This document shows positions 8,554-59,895 of a stretch of DNA of 64,000 nucleotides, piece after piece. Both the position numbers and the translations under genes were made by a program. The DNA comes from Raillietiella orientalis (Eukaryota), in assembly GCA_036172245.1 (NCBI GenBank), contig JAYWIR010000008.1, positions 3,162,001 through 3,226,000 of the forward strand, read 5' to 3'. The stretch's first letter is position 1. Each line of letters opens with the position of its first letter. The notes beneath the pieces were generated by a model. The model saw only the letters and a program-made list of their open reading frames with translations, was not told the origin of the DNA and made no database searches.

Positions 8554-10950
8554 ATGGTTGGAGGTTGGAAAAATCGTTTTGATGGTCCAGATGGCCATGC
8601 AGAGGAGGAGCGTCTTCAAGACCTGCTGGTGTTTGGTTATCACTGTAAACTGTTTCGGGATGACGAGAAAGCTCTTTATATAGATCAGGGCAAACACTTG
8701 ATTCCTTGGCCTGGAGATGACAGCATTAAGATTGATAGGTAAGCAGTGTGTAGATATCTGCTTGAGTGGCTCGTTTGCAGATACGATGGAAGATTGTTAT
8801 TACATGAGCTACAGATGTATGAGGCTCCCCCTGGAGGATATGGACCATTTGAAGCACTCACAGCTGAAGAAAAAAAAGTGGAGCAACTATGCGATGAGGA
8901 ACGCTATCTGGCTTTGCATAGGAACCTAGAAGAAGAGAAAACAGCGGAAGGTTGGTAATTACTTGTTTAAATGTAGGGTATCTGAGTCATTCCATCAGAG
9001 GAAGAGTGGAAACGTCTGTGCTCCAGTATTGAAGCATCCGGCTCCTACCATGAAGTGGGATTCTCATATGCAGACTCCCAGCCTAAGTCAGAAACCTCTG
9101 AAAACGGATTAACTGAAGAGCAAGAAGATCCAGAGCTGTTGCAACCCTATGTAGCTCCCACTCAATTAGACTTGCCAACAGATATTCAATTAGTGAGTTA
9201 TTGAGTGTTTCACGGGGAGATTTGAAATTCATTTTATTGTAGCCTGCTTTGGTCAAAGAACACAGGATTATTGAAAAAACAGCCTTTTTCATTGCTTCAC
9301 AAGGAGCCCAGATGGAAGTCGTGTTAAAGACCAAACAAGCCAACAACCCACAATTTGCCTTTTTAAACTTCGATTGTCCCTTGAATCCTTACTATCGTTA
9401 TTTGCTGGCAGCCATACGTACTGGGAAGTACCAGGGAACTACTGTGGAAGAGGAGTCAGGTAAACCAAGTGACTATCAGTTGCTCTAGAAGTCATCATGT
9501 AATTCTAGAATCCGATGGTGATCAGTATCTTCATCCCAGTCTCTCCAGTCACAGTGCGTATCCAAAACCTGATTTGGTAAGTGCGTAGTGAGCGTTCTAA
9601 TGAGATAGTATATATTTCCCCAAGGCTCCGTCCATCCCAAGCATTAAGTATCAACCTTCAGAGGATTGTAAATATGCTCAGCTTGTTAGCCAGATTAGAA
9701 GCCAAGTTGGACCTCCACCTCCACCACCTCCCATGTCCACACATCCATCATTTGGTCAGGTAGGGTGTTAAATCTTGTCCATTGTTCATCTCCTTGCAGA
9801 ATGCACAGACTTCAAAAGTTATTCTGAGTACTGAATGTCCTACAGGAATTATCGTCCCTTCAGCTTCGGAACAAATTATCATAGATAAGATGGCCAGCTA
9901 TGTATCTCGGAATGATGAAGCTCTAGAAAAGGTCGTTATGACCAAAGAAGACTCACGATTCGCATTTTTGCATCCTGAACATAAGCACCATGCATATTAC
10001 CGTTACAAACTATCCGTGTACCGAGGCTACAAAGCACAGAAATCCGGAAGTTCAGGGTCTGGCACTACTATCAGCTTCAGCATTAAAAGTCGAGACATTG
10101 AGTGTGCCCCTCTGGAACGTAGCGCTCTTCCTACAGAAGATAGTGAAGATGAAAAAACGAGTACTACTGTAAGTTTGGGAAGTCCTGAGCCCACACTGGA
10201 AGATCCAAATAAATTGGTACAATTGGAGAGGAAGAAGAAAGTCATGGCCTTCTTAAATAAAATCCGATCTGACAGAAAGCCAAATTCTACAGTTACCAGT
10301 AGTAACGATTCATCCACAAGACGAACTCCGCATGCCAGTGGCCCTATGGATCAATCCCAGTCTCCAGGCACAGAGGCTGAACATATTCTGGAAGCTATGG
10401 AAAATGCTGTTGCTTCCGACGGCGAGCAGTCATTGGTGACACAGCGTCACCATCAGTGCGAGCGTGAAGTATCGAGCAAGACGTGCCATTCTGCTAGTCC
10501 TCGGCATCAAACTATTGAACTAAATCTCAGGCTCAGGAAGAGACAGAGATCACATTCCAGATCACGAGATCACAGCCATCGTAAGCACCATCGATCAAAA
10601 GAACACGTGTACTCACTGAACGACCGATATAAACGTCACCATCATTGGCGCAGGTATGATTTACTTTGTAAACCTACTGCTAAAGTTTATGCAACTCTTC
10701 TAGCTCCTCAGAGGAAAGCAACAACAAGCGTCATGCATACTCACGGCACAAGTGAGTGTTCTTGCCATGTTGTTATTGTATTTCTTGGCAAAGGCGTTCT
10801 AGAAGCTCGCATCGGTATAAGAAGAAAAAGCGGAAACACGCACGTTCTAGGGCCTCTTCATCGTCTATAACATCTGCTAGCATTTCAGAAGAAAGCAGTA
10901 TTATGGTAGCTCATCATCACAACTTTCCCGATGCTTTACAGACTCCTTAA
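8554..10950 (+). CDS. SFSWAP: Splicing factor SWAP (suppressor of white apricot homolog): DRY_EERY domain, two SURP domains, RS-rich tail
   Basis: [17 protein letters not shown]...[10 protein letters not shown]...[15 protein letters not shown]-like [32 protein letters not shown] and [24 protein letters not shown]. Splicing of the 3' exons is less certain. Confidence 0.92.
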
Positions 10951-11072
10951 AGAAAACAGAAATTTCATCAGCTGGGCGTTGCATAGGGAATGGGAGGGTG
11001 CACAAATAATCTGGATTTATGACAATAAACTCAAAGCCTATGTTGATCTCATCTGATTTTCTTAGTTCGAAA

Positions 11073-11858
11073 ATGCGCAAGCTACTTTGTCAAACATCAT
11101 GTTTTTGGATATCAGCACGTAATGCCCGAATGCCCCCACGTATCTACACACGTACGGGTGACAAGGGAAGTTCGTCGACGTACACTGGAGAAAGACTCCC
11201 GAAAGATGACCCAGTGTTTCGTGCCCTTGGCGCATCAGACGAGCTATCCTGTCATCTAGGGTAAGCCGAGGGAAAGTGCATTCCTGTTTACTGTGTTAGT
11301 CTTTGTAAAGCACTCGCAAGGCAGGAGCAACATCCGTATGCCGCCGATTTGGAAAAGATACAGTGCGTGCTCCAAGACTTGGGATCCGTGGTCGCCATGC
11401 CCAACATGTCGGGCTCCCCACGGTATTCTAACTTCGTGCAGCTCATCTCTGAGCACGTCGGTTACCTTGAACAGCGGATAGAAGATTACACTGTCAAGCT
11501 GCCTCCTCTGAACAACTTTATATTGCCCGGTAGGTGGCCTTGGTCAGCGGTCCCTGGTTATCAGCGTGCAATCATCTCCGCCGTCAACAACAGGAGGGAG
11601 CACGACGACTGCTTACATCCATGTCGCACGCAGTGTGTGTCGGCGTGCAGAGCGAGAAGTGACCCCGCTTATCAGGTCGAACCAAACGGATGTGGCCGTG
11701 CTGAAGTTCTTGAACAGGTAGGGAGTTGCCAACCATCGGAGCACAGGCCGGTTTGCAGACTCAGCGATTACCTGTTCACCCTGGCCAGATATGTTGCCAC
11801 CCTTACAAACGAGCGGGAGGATATTTACCGTACGTTGAAATCGCCAGTTGAGAAATAA
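11073..11858 (+). CDS. MMAB: Cob(I)alamin adenosyltransferase (PduO/MMAB type) with an N-terminal mitochondrial-type presequence
   Basis: [81 protein letters not shown]; short introns. Confidence 0.95.
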
Positions 11859-18180: not shown

Positions 18181-18613
18181 CCCGGCTCGCCTCGCTCAGG
18201 ACCTTTCCCTTCGAACCGGCCAAAGTTCTCCTTGAGGTGGTCACACGGGTAGCTCCACAAGAGCGGCTGAGTCTGAGATTACCCGAGCGGAAGAGCGTCC
18301 GGATGAAAAAGATCCGAAGGCGCTCACCGCAACCTCACAAAACAGAAAAACCATCCGCGCCGACATTATCTCCTAAGGACGGAGACAGGAGATTGTAAGG
18401 AAGACACGACACAGTTTCACACGGGATCCGAAGTCCCGCTCAGAAAAAAGCGACACAAAACAAACAAAAGGAACACCAATCAGAGAGCACGTGGTATGCG
18501 TGCAGAAAGAAAGAAAAAAAAAAAACAGGACAGCAACCAGTAGGCTGCTCAAAATCCAAAACACCGCAGGAGCCGTGAAATCAAAAGGGTGATGTCTTCT
18601 GGTGACGACCACC

Positions 18614-19822
18614 TCCGATGACGAGGCAAATCCTGAGTAGCAACCACACGACCCTCTGTTTCCACGCCATCGCTTCCGCCTTTCCAAGCCGCTACCCACA
18701 CCCGCAGGCCTCCGGCGGCGCACGGAGTGCGCTTCGCAGCCATCACCCACCGGCATCGAGTCGGCGAGGGTCCAGCCGCTTGGAGGCGGGGCAAGGGTCG
18801 GATCGCCGAGCACGTTCTCGGCGTCCGCCCTTTCGTCCGCCTCCCAACCTCACTCCCAAGCTCCGCGCGTAGAAACCGGCGGTCAGGCACCTTCTCGACG
18901 ACGGGGGGCGACAGCACGCCCGGGACCGCGAACCTCGCGCGCGCACCCTTCGCGCCGAAGACGGGCAGCGGCGCGCCGTTCGCGGACTGCCTGGGGGAGA
19001 GGGCTGGTGGGGAGGAGAGGGGATACCCGCGCGCGCGTGGGAGAGTGCGCCTCCGTCACTCGTGTGCTGAAGCCGGCGCGCGAAGCAGGAGGCGCTCCCG
19101 GTCCGGCGCGGAAAGAAAAGTCACTGTCGGGATGGCGGTTTCCTGTTTGTCATTCGACAGGGACCCGACGCCGTGCGAGCGGGTCCTGGCGACTCCAAGA
19201 GTGCTGGTTACGGCTGCTCATTTGGGTGCGCGTCTCTGTCAAGCTCTCGTCCGATGCCCGAGGATCCGGAAAGTGCTCGCTGCCTTCTCCAGAAGCGTGC
19301 ATGCATCCGATTTCTGGAGCCCATCTCATCCCAAGGATCCATGCACAGCGGCACCCTGTGGGAAGAGGAAGCGTCCTCGTCCCTGAGGAGGAGGGGCAGC
19401 GAGGCGAGTGCGCTTACTGGAATCTCGTCCTCTAGGTGGAGGCGAGCATCTCGTCTTTCGCCGTCGTCCCCTTCAACTCGGCAGAGCTTTCCGGGAGCTC
19501 CCTCTGCAGCTTCCTACGCAGCGCCTTCTCGCGGCTGCACTCCTCTTCAGTCTCCTCCAGCTTCCTCTTGAGGACCTGCATTCTGCTCTTCTCCTGGAAA
19601 GCGCAAAGGGCGGAGGAGCAACAGGGTTGAGCGAGCCCAACAAGCGAGGTCGGAGAGAGGATTCTGCGCGTGTCATTGCCTGGTCCATCTGCTTTCTGCT
19701 CGATGTGAGTTGTTTGCGTTCATCTTGCAGCTCCTGCTTCAAATTCTGGATCTTCTCCTCCTTCTGGTGACAGGCTTCCTGGTTCTGCTGCGCCTCTCTG
19801 GAGACGGTTGGCAGGTGAATGC
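18614..19822. repeat. Outer inverted-repeat arm, left (1209 bp; partner 25759-26967)
   Basis: Near-identical reverse complement of 25759-26967; the ORF track shows identical translations on opposite strands. Confidence 0.97.
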
Positions 19823-21133
19823 CCCGCAGCTAGAAGAAGAAATGCTTACTTCAGTTGAGTTTCCAGCATCTCCCGCAATTCCAATATTCTGCTTTTCAGT
19901 TGCGCCTGTGTTTCCTCTTCTTCCTGGGAGTGGCTGGTTTCCAACTCCTGTTGTTCCATGACTTGTTCGATCTGCTGCTCCAGGCTCTCGATAAGGAAGT
20001 TGTTCTTTTCGGCCTCTATGCTCTTAATTGGAGGTAATCTTCTGAGCTTGTCGACCTTCTTCTGTATCTCGGACATATGAATCTGTAGATCTCTCCGTTT
20101 CTTATCCATCCCTTCCACCATTTTTTCCATGATCCACAGCTGGGCTCGCAGCCCCAAGTTGGCTTTGGAGAGAGAATTCCTTCGAGACGATGCAGAGGTG
20201 AAGAGGGCTTCGCTCTATTCCCCTTTACTTACAATTCGCTCACTTCGGACTCGGCTTCTTTCAGCAGCGTCTGTTGCTCAGTCTCCGCCAACTCCAAACT
20301 CTTTTCCAACTCCGAGATCTTCTCCATCCCTTCCCTTAGAGTGGCTTCACTCTGTATCGTACGATTCTCTTCGTCCACCTTCTCCTGATCTATCTGTTCG
20401 AGGCGTTCCGAGGCGGAGTGAAACTGCAGCTGGCGGTCATACACCTGCAACTGCTCCAGAGAAAGAAAACGACAAGGTGCTGGCTGACCACCTCTACCAA
20501 CCGCCATCAACCTTTAGCTGGTGCAGTTCCTTCAGCACTCCGCTCGCCTGCTTATGCTCGGACTCGAAAGCTTGGCTCAGCTCACCGAGTCGTTGGCTCT
20601 CTTCCTCCAAGCTCTTCTGTGCCTCGATGCGCTTCCGTCGCTCTTCTCCGAGTTCTCCTTCCAGCTTAACCACTGTCTTCAGACGGAACTTCTTCTCGCT
20701 CATGCAATTAGTTTTTCTTCTTCTATGACCTTGCAGAATGGTTTTTTCGTCCCAAAGCTCATGTTTCATCTTCTTCTCTGTATCCAGACACTTCAGCAAA
20801 GTAACTTCTATCCGGTTCGCGTGTTCTCGAAGCTGACGCAAGTCACTCTCATTTGGGGGTCCTTCCTTTCCAGCACTGGTTCCCGACAACTTACTCTGGC
20901 TCATCTGAAAAGGAATCCCAGCGTGAACAAACATCGACGGCTGACACCCCAAACACGGACCCTCTCTTTGTGCGCGCCAACGTCCCGGAACACACAGCGA
21001 CACAGCCGAGAACTCTGGACGGTGCAGGAAGGCAACGTACGGGAATTTTGAGCGTGTCGATTGCGGCACCTTGCTCCTCGCCCTTGCGGATTTCGAACTG
21101 GATTTCAATTCTCCGGCTGCGAGGCGTTTCCAT
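19432..21133 (-). CDS. Motor-less coiled-coil protein with a myosin-II-tail-like C-terminus, paralog A (~437 aa, 6 exons)
   Basis: Exons 21133-21041, 20904-20512, 20450-20233, 20179-19850, 19797-19680 and 19593-19432 join in frame; last intron GC-AG; caccATGG start. The C-terminus DERKQLTSSRKQMDQEKSRMQVLKRKLEETEEECSREKALRRKLQRELPES resembles the end of the non-muscle myosin II rod (..LKRQLEEAEEE..RRKLQRELED). Confidence 0.8.
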
Positions 21134-21540
21134 GGTGACCACGCCTTGTTTGGCCCGTCGGATGCAAAGGTGACGATGGTGGGGTTCGGCTTCTTCTCCT
21201 TCTTTCCAGCTTTTTCGCCCGTCGGGCGGATGCGAGCAACATCCTGCTGCTGTTGGCGGGGCGGCCCAGCTGGTCAGCGCGGAAGGCGGTTCCGCGTGCG
21301 TTTGCGTGACGGCCGTGGGCCGCGCCACCGGAGAAGACCGCGGGCGGAGCGGTGGTGAAAGAGGGCCGTGCCGCAGCGGAGGGATTGCCCGATTTTTTTT
21401 CCTTCCGACGCCGCAACCACCGAGATCCCGATCGAAGTGTCGAGAGACGAAGCTGCCATTTTGGGGGAAGCGACCGGCTTGCCGCTACCCGTTCCCGAGC
21501 GTGGGGGGTTTCCCGTCGGGCTCAACTCGCCCTCTTATCC
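20867..21540. repeat. Inner inverted-repeat arm, left (674 bp; partner 24023-24696)
   Basis: Reverse complement of 24023-24696 with only about two substitutions seen. Covers the upstream region, exon 1, intron 1 and the start of exon 2. Confidence 0.97.
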
Positions 21541-22218
21541 GGTGGTAAGCTTTCAGTGAATGCACGTCTTTTCGCAAGTAAGGATCTGCTTTGTTCGCTT
21601 CTGAGGATGCTTTTATCTGCTGCCTGTCTTGGGAGACTCGGCTTGCCTCTAGGAAACACCAGCTTGATAAGGAAAAGTGCATAGGCGATCAGGACCGTCC
21701 CGAGTTCTCCATGAGGCTGCCGCAGACGTAGGAAAACTAGGAATCATCACTCCCGATGCCAGTGCTATTCCACTTCCGTGATGACAACTGGTGGAAACCG
21801 CCTGCTCATTCGCCCGCAAAAGGAGCATAACCGTAGCCGAGTGTTTGGTTGGATTGGTTGGTGTGTGACGACGACGCTACAGTGACTTCAATACAGAGAC
21901 GACGTGATCGTTGGTGCCTCTTTGTGGCTGTGGAGTGGCTGCCACCGAAACTCACAAGCTGCGCTCCCTCTCAATTCAATCTACCCTCACTGTTAGCTGC
22001 TGGAATGTAGAGATAATCTTTTCGTGTCGCCTTATAAAATGTAAACCCAAAACATTTTCATTTTAAAAACAAAAAAAATTTCAACCTAAACCCAGCCTCA
22101 AACTTTCATATCCCACACCACAGCAACAGCAATGATTCAATTTTAAAGCTGCCGCTCTTCCCTCAGGATCCCTCGAGCAAGAAGGAGTGCCTTTACGAAT
22201 CACTTTTGCCTGGAGGAA

Positions 22219-22571
22219 GTGATTGAACTGGAAGGAGAACTCGGAGAAGAGCGCAGAAGAGCTTGGAGGAAGAGAGCCAACGACTCGGTGAGCTGAGCCA
22301 AGCTTTCGAGTCCGAGCATAAGCAGGCGAGCAGAGTGCCGCAGCAACTGCACGAGCCACCGGTTGATGGCGGTTGGTAGAGGTGGTCAGCCAGCACCTTG
22401 TCGTTTTCTTTCTCTGGAGCAGTTCCAGGTGTATGACCTCCAGCTGCAGCTTTACTCCGCCTCGAAAAACGCCTCGAACAGATAGATCAGGAGAAGATGG
22501 ATGAAGAGAATCCTACGATGCAGAGGGAAGCCATTCTAAAGGAAGGGAAGGAGCAGATCTTAAAGCTGGAA
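22219..22571 (+). pseudogene. Fragmentary third copy of paralog A (end of exon 2, intron 2, start of exon 3)
   Basis: Reverse complement of ~20308-20675 with the intron retained, an internal deletion (gagcg..cagaagagc) and a 2-nt insertion (cgaaaaacg versus cggaacg) that shifts the frame. Confidence 0.88.
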
Positions 22572-23720: not shown

Positions 23721-24022
23721 ACTTAGAGCCTCAGTGTGTTTAAATGCTCGCTGACAAATGAGGCGGCTCTGCAGCCGTCGGGCACAAACAAATGCTGGTG
23801 AAAAAAGCCTGCAGCGCCCACATTCTTTCACGGAACATGCCCACCTGTATTTTATAGTGTATTTTGTAATTTGTTATTTGAGATGGACATTTTTCTTCTA
23901 AATGGTTGTTATAGTTCGATTCGACTTTAAACATCTCAGACCGCTGCTTGACTTCATTGTGGCCACTCGGAATGTGCCTTCGCGAGTTTCAAGTGGGAAG
24001 GAGACATTAAAAAGTTACCATT

Positions 24023-24696
24023 GGATAAGAGGGCGAGTTGAGCCCGACGGGAAACCCCCCACGCTCGGGAACGGGTAGCGGCAAGCCGGTCGCTTCCCCC
24101 AAAATGGCAGCTTCGTCTCTCGACACTTCGATCGGGATCTCGGTGGTTGCGGCGTCGGAAGGAAGAAAAATCGGGCAATCCCTCCGCTGCGGCACGGCCC
24201 TCTTTCACCACCGCTCCGCCCGCGGTCTTCTCCGGTGGCGCGGCCCACGGCCGTCACGCAAACGCACGCGGAACCGCCTTCCGCGCTGACCAGCTGGGCC
24301 GCCCCGCCAACAGCAGCAGGATGTTGCTCGCATCCGCCCGACGGGCGAAAAAGCTGGAAAGAAGGGGAAGAAGCCGAACCCCACCATCGTCACCTTTGCA
24401 TCCGACGGGCCAAACAAGGCGTGGTCACCATGGAAACGCCTCGCAGCCGGAGAATTGAAATCCAGTTCGAAATCCGCAAGGGCGAGGAGCAAGGTGCCGC
24501 AATCGACACGCTCAAAATTCCCGTACGTTGCCTTCCTGCACCGTCCAGAGTTCTCGGCTGTGTCGCTGTGTGTTCCGGGACGTTGGCGCGCACAAAGAGA
24601 GGGTCCGTGTTTGGGGTGTCAGCCGTCGATGTTTGTTCACGCTGGGATTCCTTTTCAGATGAGCCAGAGTAAGTTGTCGGGAACCAGTGCTGGAAA
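24023..24696. repeat. Inner inverted-repeat arm, right
   Basis: Partner of 20867-21540. Confidence 0.97.
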
Positions 24697-26149
24697 TGAG
24701 CTGTCCAGTTTGGGAGCGGACAGAATATGGATGGACAGGGATATGCTCAAAGAAGAAATCAAGCAGAGGAGCCTTCTTCTGAGTGATTGTGAGAACAGGA
24801 ATATGAGAACGAAAATAAGGCTGCAGAAGATTCGAACCCATATCCAGCAAGAGAAGAAAGAGAAAAGGCAAATTAAGATGGCCATTCGGATTCTGCTCAA
24901 GCAGGAGAATGAACTAAAGAGAGAAATGGAAGAGGAGAAGAGGAAAAGTGCCGAAACTGCTGAAGAGCTGATGATTGTGAATGCGAGAGCACGCAACATA
25001 GAAAAGAAGAAACGTCAAATGAGCAAACGAAGAAAGAGGCAGCTGGTGGAATTGGAGGAACTGAAGGTTGAGTGCGGTTGAAAGACGTGGTCTGCCTGCA
25101 GCTCTTTCTTTCTCTTTCTCGGTGCAGCTGCAGGTGCTAGATCACGCGAAGGAGATGGAACCCGTCACAAATCTCCTCAAGCAAGTGGCTCAGGATCGCG
25201 CGCATCCAGGGGATTTTGAACTGCCGATGGAAGAAGACCTGAGGAAAAACCAAGGAAAGCTCTCGAATCTGACAAATTTGCTGGACATCGTGCAGAAGCA
25301 AGTGATTCTCTCAAAACATGAATTGGAAGAAGAGAGGAAGAAAAGGTGAGGCAGGACTTGGGATGAAACGCTTGGATACTTCTAGTGGCTACTTCGCAGA
25401 ACAAAGCAATTCCAACAGAATAAGGCGCTGAAAAAGTACCTCAAGGTGCTGAAACGTAGGCTGGAAGAGTTGACGAAGGAATGCGAGGATTTAAAGCGTC
25501 AGACTTTAGAGCACATGGCGGAGTACCTTCAGCTCGCCTCAGATAATCTCACGGAGCAATGCTCCAACAGGAGTCAGGTTTCCACACTTCAGATGCTGGA
25601 GGATAAGAATGAGAAACTCATGGAAATGCAACGCAACAAGCAGGCCATGGCGTCACTCATGAGCGCGCAAACATTCGAGCAATCCAGAATGATCGAGAGC
25701 ATGACTTTGCAGATCAAGAAGACGAGGAGGTAAACATGCATGCCCTTTGCGACGCAGTGCGTTCACCTGCCAACCGTCTCCAGAAAGGCGCAGCGGGACC
25801 AGAAAACCTGTCGCAAGAAGGAGAAGGCCATCCAGAATTTGGAGCAGGAGCTGCAAGATGAACGCAAACAACTCACATCGAGCAGAAAGCAGATGGACCA
25901 GGCAATGACACGCGCAGAATCCTCTCTCCGACCTCGCCCGTTGGGCTCGCTCAACCCTGTTGCTCCTCCGCCCTTTGCGCTTTCCAGGTGAAGAGCAGAA
26001 TGCAGGTCCTCAAGAGGAAGCTGGAGGAGACTGAAGAGGAGTGCAGCCGCGAGAAGGCGCTGCGTAGGAAGCTGCAGAGGGAGCTCCCGGAAAGCTCTGC
26101 CGAGTTGAAGGGGACGACGGCGAAAGACGAGATGCTCGCCTCCACCTAG
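24430..26149 (+). CDS. Motor-less coiled-coil protein with a myosin-II-tail-like C-terminus, paralog B (~442 aa, 6 exons)
   Basis: Exons 24430-24522, 24659-25066, 25128-25345, 25400-25729, 25784-25901 and 25988-26149. Intron phases equal those of paralog A, and exons 1, 3, 4, 5 and 6 have identical lengths (93, 218, 330, 118, 162 nt). Confidence 0.8.
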
Positions 26150-26967
26150 AGGACGAGATTCCAGTAAGCGCACTCGCCTCGCTGCCCCTCCTCCTCAGGG
26201 ACGAGGACGCTTCCTCTTCCCACAGGGTGCCGCTGTGCATGGATCCTTGGGATGAGATGGGCTCCAGAAATCGGATGCATGCACGCTTCTGGAGAAGGCA
26301 GCGAGCACTTTCCGGATCCTCGGGCATCGGACGAGAGCTTGACAGAGACGCGCACCCAAATGAGCAGCCGTAACCAGCACTCTTGGAGTCGCCAGGACCC
26401 GCTCGCACGGCGTCGGGTCCCTGTCGAATGACAAACAGGAAACCGCCATCCCGACAGTGACTTTTCTTTCCGCGCCGGACCGGGAGCGCCTCCTGCTTCG
26501 CGCGCCGGCTTCAGCACACGAGTGACGGAGGCGCACTCTCCCACGCGCGCGCGGGTATCCCCTCTCCTCCCCACCAGCCCTCTCCCCCAGGCAGTCCGCG
26601 AACGGCGCGCCGCTGCCCGTCTTCGGCGCGAAGGGTGCGCGCGCGAGGTTCGCGGTCCCGGGCGTGCTGTCGCCCCCCGTCGTCGAGAAGGTGCCTGACC
26701 GCCGGTTTCTACGCGCGGAGCTTGGGAGTGAGGTTGGGAGGCGGACGAAAGGGCGGACGCCGAGAACGTGCTCGGCGATCCGACCCTTGCCCCGCCTCCA
26801 AGCGGCTGGACCCTCGCCGACTCGATGCCGGTGGGTGATGGCTGCGAAGCGCACTCCGTGCGCCGCCGGAGGCCTGCGGGTGTGGGTAGCGGCTTGGAAA
26901 GGCGGAAGCGATGGCGTGGAAACAGAGGGTCGTGTGGTTGCTACTCAGGATTTGCCTCGTCATCGGA
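25759..26967. repeat. Outer inverted-repeat arm, right
   Basis: Partner of 18614-19822. Confidence 0.97.
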
Positions 26968-27127
26968 AGTGATTTTCACCAGGGATTGCTGTCCTGGGTA
27001 CGTGGCTGAGGAGATGGTCGTTGGTTTTCTTAGGTTTGCATTCTATGTGATCTTTCTAGCTCAGGATGCAGTGCATGGTGAGGATGAGGTGGTCCGATAC
27101 TTCTAGGAGCCTCATTGTGGTTGCAAT

Positions 27128-29588: not shown

Positions 29589-34841
<5,253 letters not shown>

Positions 34842-45000: not shown

Positions 45001-45785
45001 AAGAGAGGCAAAAGAAAAAAAGATAACCTCGCTGCGGTCCTGTTGAGCTTGGATGCAGGGCTCTGTTCCGCCCTGACTCTGATGCCTCTAATAAACGAGA
45101 TTCGTATTCGAGTGGCGGCTCAAAAAAAAAAAAAAAGAACGAATGAAAGAAAGAAAAAAAGCAGCAAAGTTCATCCACGACGCATGCGCGCCTGCATTTC
45201 GCTGCCGAGGATGAAATTTCAAGGGAAGCCGAGAGAAAGCGCGGCAGCTCTTCGGCTTTCCATGCTGTGATGTTAACGTGTGGAAAGCGCCCTCAAGAGC
45301 GATGCTTCCTCTACTGAAGAAGAGTCCAGGGACAGGAGAGTAGTGCTTACACAAACGTGGTGCAAGCGGATGATGAAGATGCTGCGATCCTCAGGATGGG
45401 GGAATCCTTTCCTCCGTCCTCCCATCTCCCGTCGACGTGGAGATCGATGCAAGACAAAGCAGTGTTCCCGGATGCTGAGTTTGTGCAGGACTCGGGCAGT
45501 GCTCAGAGCTCCGTGGACAGAAGGAACGAAGAGCCTGATCTGACCCGGGGCGGGTGTGAGTGCAAACCTTCCGCTTGACCAGTGGAGTCGAGCGTGAACT
45601 ACGAAGCAAAGCGGTATGGAGGCCTGAAAGCACGGCAGATGAGGCGAAAATTTCTGCTCCTCTCCGTAACCTAGGAAACGAGACTCGGAAGATTGGAGCT
45701 CGCAGAGAATTCCGACAGGATGGCGACCCCAACAGCAGACAGGCACACGAGTGGACATGTGGACGATCAAAATTCCGAAAAAATC

Positions 45786-45786
<1 letters not shown>

Positions 45787-45831
<45 letters not shown>
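45787..45831. repeat. (TA)n microsatellite
   Basis: Directly visible. Confidence 0.98.
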
Positions 45832-45833
<2 letters not shown>

Positions 45834-45913
45834 GCGAAAGGGGAGGGGGGGAGGAGGAACATATGTCTTTTGGCAACCCTTCTCTTCCCTTCCCGCATAA
45901 GCCGAAGCGCTAA
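45834..45913 (+). repeat. ~80-bp exact direct duplicate of 46740-46819
   Basis: gcgaaaggggagggggggaggaggaacatatg...gccgaagcgctaa is present at both sites. Confidence 0.95.
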
Positions 45914-46053
45914 AATGCACAGAAAGCATACACAAAAAAACGATTCGGTATTGTATATTGTATATTTGTATTTTGTAGTATTCATAATATATTAATCTTT
46001 ATATAAACATGTATATGAATATATGTCCACGTATGTCCATGTATATGAATATA

Positions 46054-46089
<36 letters not shown>

Positions 46090-46233
46090 TGTATGTGTGT
46101 GTGTGTGTGTGTGTGTGACATATATTCATATACATGTTTATATAAAGATTAATATATTATGAATACTACAAAATACAAATATACAATATACAATACCGAA
46201 TCGTTTTTTTGTGTATGCTTTCTGTGCATTTTA
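45911..46233. repeat. Perfect ~117-bp inverted repeat (45911-46027 / 46117-46233) around a (TA)(TATG)(TG) microsatellite spacer
   Basis: taaaatgcacagaaagcatacac...gaatatatgtc is the reverse complement of gacatatattc...ctttctgtgcatttta. Confidence 0.95.
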
Positions 46234-48037
46234 AGCATTAAGCAAGGGTCCTAAAATCGTTAAATTAAAACTTGTTCGGTACTCGTCGGTCTCAGCACTC
46301 GTCACGAGTTCCGGAACGAATTACTGACGAGTACCGAGGTACCACTAGCTTATTATATGCATTATTAATTTATACGTTATAATAAGCGTATCGGTGTATC
46401 GTTGGGGATTTTAAATCGGACCAGTGAAGGGTGGCTCAAAGGGGCTTTCTTCCGTGCTGCTCTTCTTCCTCAGAGCAGCACGGGGAAGGTGCCTTTCGGG
46501 ACCGAGTCAAAGATACTTGCCTCCGGCTCCTTCCGAAAGTTTCTGCCAGGCAAGTGACCCTTGCGGGCTCTCGGTGCGCACTCATGGAGGCAGCAGCGGG
46601 CGCCCATGCGGGACAGTCACCTGCACCTGGTGATCCCGGCCTGTGGCCCGCTGACCCTCGAAATTTCGTTTCGCGCCCACGTCTTCCCGCAGCATCCTCC
46701 CTGCCTTCCGCGTAACCCGCCGCGAAGCTTTCTGCTGGAGCGAAAGGGGAGGGGGGGAGGAGGAACATATGTCTTTTGGCAACCCTTCTCTTCCCTTCCC
46801 GCATAAGCCGAAGCGCTAAGAGCGCGCTCCTGACGAACGCATCCTGTGGATTCCGCGCCTCGCTTTCCTGAGCAACCACAGGCACTCGCCTTAGCGATGC
46901 GCCTGTGGTTTCCCCATCTCGTACGGTCGCTGGCTTTTTGTAGCCACAGCATGCGCCTCCGTCTCTGCTTTCCCGATCTCGCACTCGGCTCGGAGCGGAG
47001 TCTTCTACAAGGTCTCTCTCCTTTCCTCTCTCCTTTTTCATCTTTTGTTTTTTTGCTTTCGATGGATCAGGGGTGGATTCTCCGTCTCATCTGGCGACGC
47101 TCCCCTGCCCAGCCCTTGTTCCACTGCGGAGAGGGTTGCCTGTGTTCTTGGTGCGCCCTTGGAGAAACGCTGTGGTTTCTTTGGATGGTGATTGGTGGGC
47201 CTGGAATCTCGCAGGCGGCGCAGGATGTCCATCTTCGCCTCTTTTCCTCACAAGGAACGCGAACAGGGTTGCGGATGCCTCCCGCGCGACTGCAGGAACG
47301 ACGGAGCTCATCAGCGGGGGGGCAGCAGGTCGACTGGCAGGTGCGGGACTTCTGAGAATCCTGGACGAGGAGCGAATGGGCGTCCCGAGTCTTCCTGCAC
47401 GGTTGAGTGTCACCCCTCCCACTCCGGCACACGGCGCTCTTTTAGCTCTGGGACTCCCGTGAAACCAGTGCAGGTTCCGCTGGAGAGCTTACGGGGAAGT
47501 TCGCTATGCGTCGGACGCGTTCTCTCTCGCTCCACCGAGGACTGCCAATGCGTGTCTGCTGACGTCTCTCTTGCTTTCGCCGATGCCTCCAGGAAGGTCT
47601 TTTCCAAGTCGGAGGCATCCTGCTCTAAGGAATTGACCCGCGGAAACGGAAAGATTTTGGATCCAGGTGAACTCGACGGGGACGCGGTCCAGGCGGAAGT
47701 AGGGGTCAACGTGGTCCGTGGACACAGTCCGGAGCCACATTAGACAAGGTGGGGTGTCTTGCACGTTTGTCGGCTGCGCGTTTCCATGGGAAAGGAAGAA
47801 AAGCTTTACATTTCCTCCCTGATCTCCCTGGCGGTGCTTGTAGGAGTTTATGCTATCCCTACGCACACCAAACTTCAAGGATAAGCAGAGCTAACTTAGC
47901 ATAGGAAAGGAAGATCCACGGCCGAGAGGGCGCAAGTCGTTGGGCTGATCTGAGAGGATGCACGACTAGCCCAACGACCGCTGAAAACCGCCTTCAGGGC
48001 TGAGGGCAGAAGGCTATTCCCGAGGACACCGATCGGT

Positions 48038-59369: not shown

Positions 59370-59895
59370 CAGCCTGGACACCGAAATGCAGCTTGGGCAC
59401 GCGCGCCATCAACGAAGAGAGTACATGGCAATCCCTGATCGACGAACGTCCCCATCAGGAAAAGCCCATACGCTGAATGGGATTGCACCGTGTCTTCAGC
59501 CACTTTCTCACTAGCGGGGAGTGGTCGAAACTCATCATCCATGCCGCAGATATGGATCTCCCCGAGCTGCAGATGAACCTCAGTTGCCTGAGGAAGACTA
59601 CTGGAAGCCGGGAACCCTGTCGAGAGAGCAGTGCGATTCGGACTACGCGTCCCAGGACCTGGCGACCCTGTTGGCCAACGCAAACCTCAGCAAGTACATC
59701 GACGTTTTCGAAACCCAGGAGCCCGACATGAGCATGTTCGTCACCTTGAACGAGCGGAACCTACAGGACCTAGGGATCACGGCTTTCGGGTCCCGGCGGA
59801 AGATGCTGTGCTTGATACATGAGTGCAGGAAGGGCATCCGGAAAGCTAATAGGAGGTCCATCAGTACCAGAGATCGGATGCAACGTTTGAAATAA
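59370..59895 (+). pseudogene. Bicaudal-C-like C-terminal fragment with a SAM domain; intronless and apparently degenerate
   Basis: DLATLLANANLSKYIDVFETQEPDMSMFVTLNERNLQDLGITAFGSRRKML matches the BicC/ANKS6-type SAM domain (KYTDVFQQQEID..FLTL..DLKELGITTFGARRKML). Upstream frameshifted KCSLGTRAI resembles BicC KKLLATKAM. No KH domains seen. Confidence 0.7.

Follow-up and report, generated by a model that had tools for sequence, protein, structure and literature searches.

The window analysed here is a 64,000-nucleotide stretch of the Raillietiella orientalis genome and contains two paralogous genes, A and B, in head-to-head orientation (Table 1). Each has six coding exons with matching phases, and exons 3 to 6 are equal in length. 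Self-comparison of the window revealed two pairs of inverted arms flanking a diverged core, placing near-identical tracts on both sides of otherwise old paralogous sequence. The 5' arm contains upstream DNA, exon 1, intron 1, and codons 1-13 of exon 2, and the 3' arm starts with the final 25 bases of intron 4 and also spans a divergent 20-codon patch at the beginning of exon 5, the remainder of this exon, intron 5, and exon 6. In the core, A and B retain 15-24% amino-acid and 38-47% nucleotide identity, with unchanged intron positions and an omega of about 1. The GC content of the arms is 64-66% compared to 50% in the spacer, and GC3 climbs to 0.87 in exon 6. The complete proteins differ strongly in charge, with a net charge of -10 and a pI of 5.7 for A and a net charge of +23 and a pI of 9.6 for B; over the span matching their rod, non-muscle myosin II (NMII) has a net charge of -14.

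Table 1. Features of the A/B locus and its surroundings, in window coordinates; the models of genes A and B are from sequence only.
Feature	Position	Strand	Partner	Remarks
5' arm of inverted repeat	24011..24699		20864-21553	99.1% identity
3' arm of inverted repeat	25759..26982		18599-19822	1224 nt, 98.4% identity
Diverged core of B	24700..25758	+	19823-20863 (A)
Gene B	24430..26149	+		six coding exons, 442 aa
Gene B exons	24430-24522, 24659-25066, 25128-25345, 25400-25729, 25784-25901, 25988-26149	+
Gene A	19432..21133	-		six coding exons, 437 aa
Gene A exons	21133-21041, 20904-20512, 20450-20233, 20179-19850, 19797-19680, 19593-19432	-
Patch in B	25785..25844	+	19737..19796	exon 5 codons 1-20
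Patch in A	19737..19796	-	25785-25844	aligned to B
Segment equivalent to the assembly-competence domain (ACD)	25988..26074	+		= MYH10 1875-1903
Decayed partial copy of A exons 2-3	22197..22571	+		in spacer; 19-nt deletion, 2-nt insertion, four new prolines
Neighbour genes by Pfam	9764-11858, 32983-34743, 59515-59895			SURP-module protein, cobalamin adenosyltransferase, ATP synthase beta, SAM-domain protein

Sequence comparison identifies A and B as motor-less copies of the final ~370 residues of the NMII rod, with near-identical ends and a saturated middle. Exon 6 matches the end of the Pfam domain Myosin_tail_1 (positions 1029-1064, E 9e-9, under Pfam's curated cut-off) as well as residues 1877-1917 of human myosin-10 (MYH10), and a profile-library search with this exon returned 11 matches, comprising ten NMII fragments (52-71% identity) and one repetitive chance match (P0001), which was excluded from the match set. 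A profile of 93 distinct NMII rods is colinear with A over residues 52-420 and aligns firmly to B across the last 140 residues, with composition-biased scores in both cases, and the closest matches of both proteins are non-muscle and smooth-type myosins. In the ACD-equivalent segment a single residue differs between A and B, and mean identity to NMII is 55-56%, compared to only 21-31% in the patch. No motor domain or IQ neck was found at the A/B locus: five full-length NMII queries match exon 6 alone, and the sole head-region match in the 64-kb window has an E value of 0.09 or worse and lies 37 kb off. Among 80 NMII-like metagenome loci, none exceeds about 50% identity to A or B across >60 residues. 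An exact 25-base scan across metagenomes gave no match, homolog searches for B exon 2 and for exon 6 gave none at E 0.01, a PDB search with exon 5 alone matched no myosin, and an atlas search with A exon 2 retrieved just generic coiled coils with low recognition. We found no report, in open-access and bioRxiv texts, of oppositely charged headless NMII rods encoded by genes of their own.

The two genes also depart from NMII in their charge distribution. The 28-residue charge repeat is gone from both (p 0.58 for A, 0.21 for B), whereas two NMII rods beat all 2000 shuffles, and ordinary myosin filaments are therefore unlikely. In the final 98-residue window the net charge is -7 in A, +10 in B, and +4.7 in NMII, meaning that B has the net positive C-terminal zone of NMII and A is without it.

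Several features of the gene models deserve mention. Intron 2 (25067-25127 on the plus strand, 20451-20511 on the minus strand) shows a likeness between A and B visibly above that of the adjoining exons, though it lies inside the saturated core. Across exon 4 (residues ~280-324 in A, ~285-329 in B) the heptad pattern fades, with two prolines in A, and both proteins are one residue short of NMII in this stretch, so that the register continues without the shift seen in NMII. In the models, intron 5 uses a GC donor (GC-AG; 25902-25987 on the plus strand, 19594-19679 on the minus strand), and 13 NMII loci have a GT donor at this site. In the stretch at 26147-26170 on the plus strand and 19411-19434 on the minus strand, the stop codon common to A and B falls at a conserved NMII leucine (MYH10 1928), with a donor-like GTAAG site five codons on and an acidic, serine-rich frame further downstream; conversion may have spread a truncation to give the shared C-terminus, or a further exon may exist.

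Within the patch, A and B differ at 12 nucleotides and in 10 of 20 codons, all ten of which alter the residue (three E/K, one K/E, Q/R, Q/K, H/R, N/D, A/T, and K/A). Our recomputed alignment agrees with the original prediction on this count and on the E/K, K/E, Q/R, Q/K, and H/R changes that it listed, but its statement that no difference is synonymous holds per codon (10/10) and not strictly per base, as all three bases of codon 15 differ and three of its six mutational paths contain a synonymous step. Twelve of the 20 differences of the entire 3' arm fall in the patch, giving a divergence of 20% versus 0.35% over the remaining arm to 26967, and the patch is bounded by the identical intron tail on one side and the near-identical remainder of the exon and arm on the other. 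The reading frame was assessed against the NMII-like metagenome loci, in 63 of which exon 5 could be placed. The A/B acceptor AG lies at the same base (phase 2) in 36 of 37 NMII loci with an upstream break (two of these rows, L066 and L075, being doubtful placements), and in 13 of 35 loci that break downstream of the exon, a GT occupies the A/B intron 5 position; most others break three codons earlier. Since the exon 5 borders coincide with NMII introns, the frame used in the original prediction is correct, and a wrong reading frame for this exon is ruled out.

The codon differences also indicate how the patch arose. In the patch, 9 of 10 differing codons differ by a single base and 9 of 10 have an unchanged third base, compared to 18 and 21 of 55 in exon 3, respectively, which suggests past homogenisation of the beginning of exon 5, followed by renewed divergence. 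Old core differences kept codon by codon were considered as the main source of the patch and are ruled out by these single-base changes. We thus regard the patch as a zone of recent divergence bordering a gene-conversion tract, in which selection on rod surface charge is slightly more likely than drift.

Positive selection on the patch is only suggested, and the hint of functional divergence, though real, is weak in statistical terms. Counting yields dN 0.275 (about 50 sites) and dS 0.05 (about 10 sites), and the pairwise codon-model likelihood-ratio test gives p 0.001-0.015 for these 20 codons, with the estimate at its bound. The neutral probability that 0 of 12 differences are synonymous is 0.011-0.097, and that every changed codon is nonsynonymous is 0.06-0.12 in a neutral simulation. 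The intron-4 tail carries 0-1 differences per 20-23 bases versus 12/60 in the patch (p 0.02-0.07); pooling this identical tail with the synonymous sites as neutral, without GC bias, yields p values of 0.001-0.03, rising to as much as 0.10 should half of the tail be constrained. In the pairwise codon model, omega is about 1 (0.99-1.21), and so not above it, over all 392 alignable codons, and 1.3-1.6 in the core, where it is not significant; exon 4 estimates were excluded as unstable, at the bound, and based on an ungapped alignment across likely indels. The positive selection originally proposed is thus not established: a whole-region omega not above 1, the result named with that prediction as refuting it, is in part what we observe, and a frameshifted copy of A, described below, shows a matching signature.

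Near-neutral drift combined with base composition is only slightly less likely. Conversion would simply have become rare at the arm edge and surface sites would be almost unconstrained, and the absence of synonymous changes would stem from scarce synonymous sites, third positions saturated with G or C, small numbers, and the choice of a striking 20-codon segment. The omega values of about 1 in the core and the whole gene fit this explanation, as does the small number of synonymous sites among the E, K, and Q codons of the patch (only about 10 per 60 bases). Moreover, 17 of 20 third positions in the patch are already G or C, leaving less synonymous opportunity under GC bias. In these GC-rich arms, patch changes polarisable against NMII run 5 to 2 from A/T to G/C (hand count), and under an at least tenfold preference for AT-to-GC changes, the probability of 0/12 synonymous differences rises to 0.12-0.29. 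GC-biased conversion is described as distorting the inference of selection (PMC6188562), and coiled coils may diverge neutrally while keeping their length (PMC8598163).

The spacer contains a decayed copy of part of A that provides a control, albeit an imperfect one, as this copy may for a time have been functional. It differs from A in 32 of 103 codons, 3 of them synonymous (pN 0.131, pS 0.094), and contains one 20-codon window with 10 differing codons and zero synonymous differences, changes to proline among them. Neither the synonymous share (p 0.17-0.46) nor the charge (p 0.10) of the patch is significantly different from that of the control, which weighs against selection and warns that a pattern of ten changed codons in 20, with no synonymous one among them, need not reflect adaptive protein evolution. 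Conversely, base changes between A and the dead copy show no net GC bias (17 vs 15), a point against drift. The 61-base intron of the dead copy is identical to that of A, whereas the flanking coding bases differ at 38 of 312 positions (12%, p 0.0008), and identity breaks off a few bases at most from each exon border. Likewise, the identity of the intron-4 tail between A and B halts at the first full codon of exon 5; this tail lies nearer the diverged core than the exon does and is nonetheless identical, which also argues against drift. Short tracts that become fixed in introns and halt at exon borders would, we infer, be expected of selection against overwriting a working exon. Selection against conversion with nonsynonymous differences in excess is a described pattern (PMC2588116), and the model of divergence between duplicates under conversion is also treated in PMC3728101.

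The position of the patch in the rod points to what such selection might act on. An NMII fragment that aligns gap-free to MYH10 places the patch at residues 1836-1855, in the positive zone upstream of the ACD. In human NMII-B, a net-positive region is described at 1748-1931 and the ACD at 1875-1903, and deletion of part of the positive region upstream of an intact ACD strongly reduced self-assembly of the rod (PMC2204051). In 99-100% of 93 distinct NMII windows, a K or R occupies each of residues 1842, 1845, 1846, 1849, and 1850, and residue 1836 is acidic in all of them (100%). B retains basic residues at 1842, 1845, 1846, and 1849 and is altered at 1836 and 1850, whereas A has E, H, Q, and E at the former four positions and retains the NMII-like E1836 and K1850. 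The net charge of the patch is consequently -1 in A and +4 in B, compared to +4 in 90 of 93 NMII windows. Four of the ten differences are not polarisable against NMII, but all four polarisable changes in the A lineage are losses of near-invariant basic residues, a further point against drift.

Charge is altered by 9 of 10 changes versus 46-59% expected (p 0.005-0.04), an enrichment that survives GC bias (p 0.02-0.04) and in this respect also disfavours drift. Core a/d positions differ in 1 of 6 cases versus 9 of 14 elsewhere (p 0.07). With near-invariant charged NMII sites defined without reference to A and B, 6 of 10 were hit versus 4 of 10 others (p 0.33), and inferred ancestral basic sites have changed in 5 of 6 cases versus 5 of 14 (p 0.07); this lack of significant enrichment counts against selection on charge. 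The earlier claim that the changes bear on surface charge is supported, with charge altered at most changed codons, the core a/d positions mostly spared, and A and B complementary in their overall charge.

Selection on the dimer interface, with A and B forming either an obligate two-chain heterodimer or mutually exclusive homodimers along the lines of the original prediction, is unlikely. In its favour, the two proteins have one heptad register in common and equal exon lengths, and four of the ten patch differences lie at e or g (the positions in order being g, c, d, f, g, b, c, f, g, and e). Only one e/g pair in the patch favours AB over AA, namely g1850-e'1855, which is K-K in AA, A-E in BB, and K-E on one side of AB, and the e/g net score of the patch is -2 for AA, 0 for BB, and +1 for AB. 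Along the scored rod, however, the scores are 12 for AA, 14 for BB, and 12 for AB, with AB lowest in the proximal rod (7 vs 12 and 10), and the conserved basic residues lost in A occupy the outer positions f, b, c, and f, off the e/g dimer flank. Stagger electrostatics, in which no pairing showed a clear optimum, were left out of account. The charge difference between A and B, as far as these predicted heptads tell, is one of rod-rod packing and not of chain-pairing choice.

Our leading, though tentative, interpretation is that selection acts on or preserves a charge difference on the outer surface, B being the strong assembler and A the weak one. The first part of exon 5 would have been homogenised like the rest of the arm and later re-diverged via point mutation, and conversion would now fail to fix across the patch because the A and B versions are not interchangeable. 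The differing feature would be the outer-surface positive patch that drives rod-to-rod packing in NMII, kept and enlarged in B and neutralised in A. B would then be likely to nucleate or strongly bind acidic rods (those of B itself, of A, or of host NMII), and A would be likely to assemble poorly alone and to join or modulate, with both still using the common assembly-competence segment. Loss of the 28-residue charge repeat weighs against this interpretation, as myosin-type packing rules may no longer apply. ACD-less NMII is reported to join existing filaments (PMC11257479). Binding or co-assembly via the retained ACD, in the manner of cingulin or of ACD-less NMII, is a reasonable guess.

Rather improbable is the idea that acidic A and basic B are the two subunits of a new myosin-rod-derived filament that splits the negative and positive packing zones between them, comparable to the acidic and basic keratins as filament subunits. 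If so, the patch would be a partition still moving toward the C-terminus, shared promoter-side DNA would keep A and B co-expressed, and conversion would keep the assembly domain common. Cytoplasmic intermediate filaments are described as lost in the lineage (PMC4829535). A role in the synaptonemal complex, whose proteins keep length and heptads but not sequence (PMC8598163), was considered, with nothing specific in its favour. An assembly or polishing artefact, in which the identical arms would be collapsed reads and the patch partly merged haplotypes or paralogs, is very improbable, as frames and splice sites are intact in both genes, the arms bear scattered private differences, and the patch differences preserve the frame, spare the core, and resemble NMII now in A and now in B.

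The evolutionary pattern itself, a divergence island under conversion, is already known. The Teshima and Innan model has been applied to Drosophila CG18281/CG17637 (PMC2588116) and copepod GOT1p1/p2 (PMC3728101), and A and B share with these cases homogenised flanks, a diverged coding block, block edges that are more diverged, and, at the weak level of support given above, a nonsynonymous excess; in the first Drosophila peak, 14 of 20 differences are nonsynonymous (PMC2588116). In contrast to both, the A/B island is saturated and spans three exons, with the patch as a younger step at its edge, and whereas the Drosophila and copepod studies separated selection from relaxed constraint by means of sister species, A and B are known from one genome. 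As a selection signal, the patch is thus small and ordinary. Its value lies in the location of the differences within a section of the myosin II rod whose function has been mapped, which allows a direct test of the packing rules of a duplicated rod.

Among known proteins, A and B resemble the distal rod of NMII (zipper, MYH9, and MYH10) in their colinear ~370 residues, introns 4 and 5, continuous heptads, and 55% ACD identity. They differ from it in lacking the motor, neck, and 28-residue repeat, in the 21-31% identity of the patch, in a stop at the coiled-coil end, and in an A-B omega of about 1. Paramyosin is likewise a headless myosin rod. Catchin and the Drosophila myosin rod protein (MRP) are also headless myosin rods, but are alternative transcripts of muscle myosin genes (PMC3912159), whereas A and B are separate genes with non-muscle/smooth-type matches. 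Cingulin and paracingulin are motor-less as well, and their C-terminal rod, which is closest to NM2 rods, binds NM2 (PMC10202830). They are, however, junction proteins of vertebrates and have large heads (PMC2174252), whereas the N-terminal non-rod part of A and B is about 45 residues long. A and B also have arthropod-type NMII introns. A and B may be NMII regulators like cingulin, or may form a lineage-specific filament.

Across the whole window, the GC content climbs from 33% to 55-60% at about 12-28 kb and a second time at 42-62 kb, with AT-rich genes in between. A perfect 50-base palindrome is located at 45785-45834, followed by an imperfect 324-base palindrome at 45911-46233 and an 80-base exact repeat at 46740-46819.
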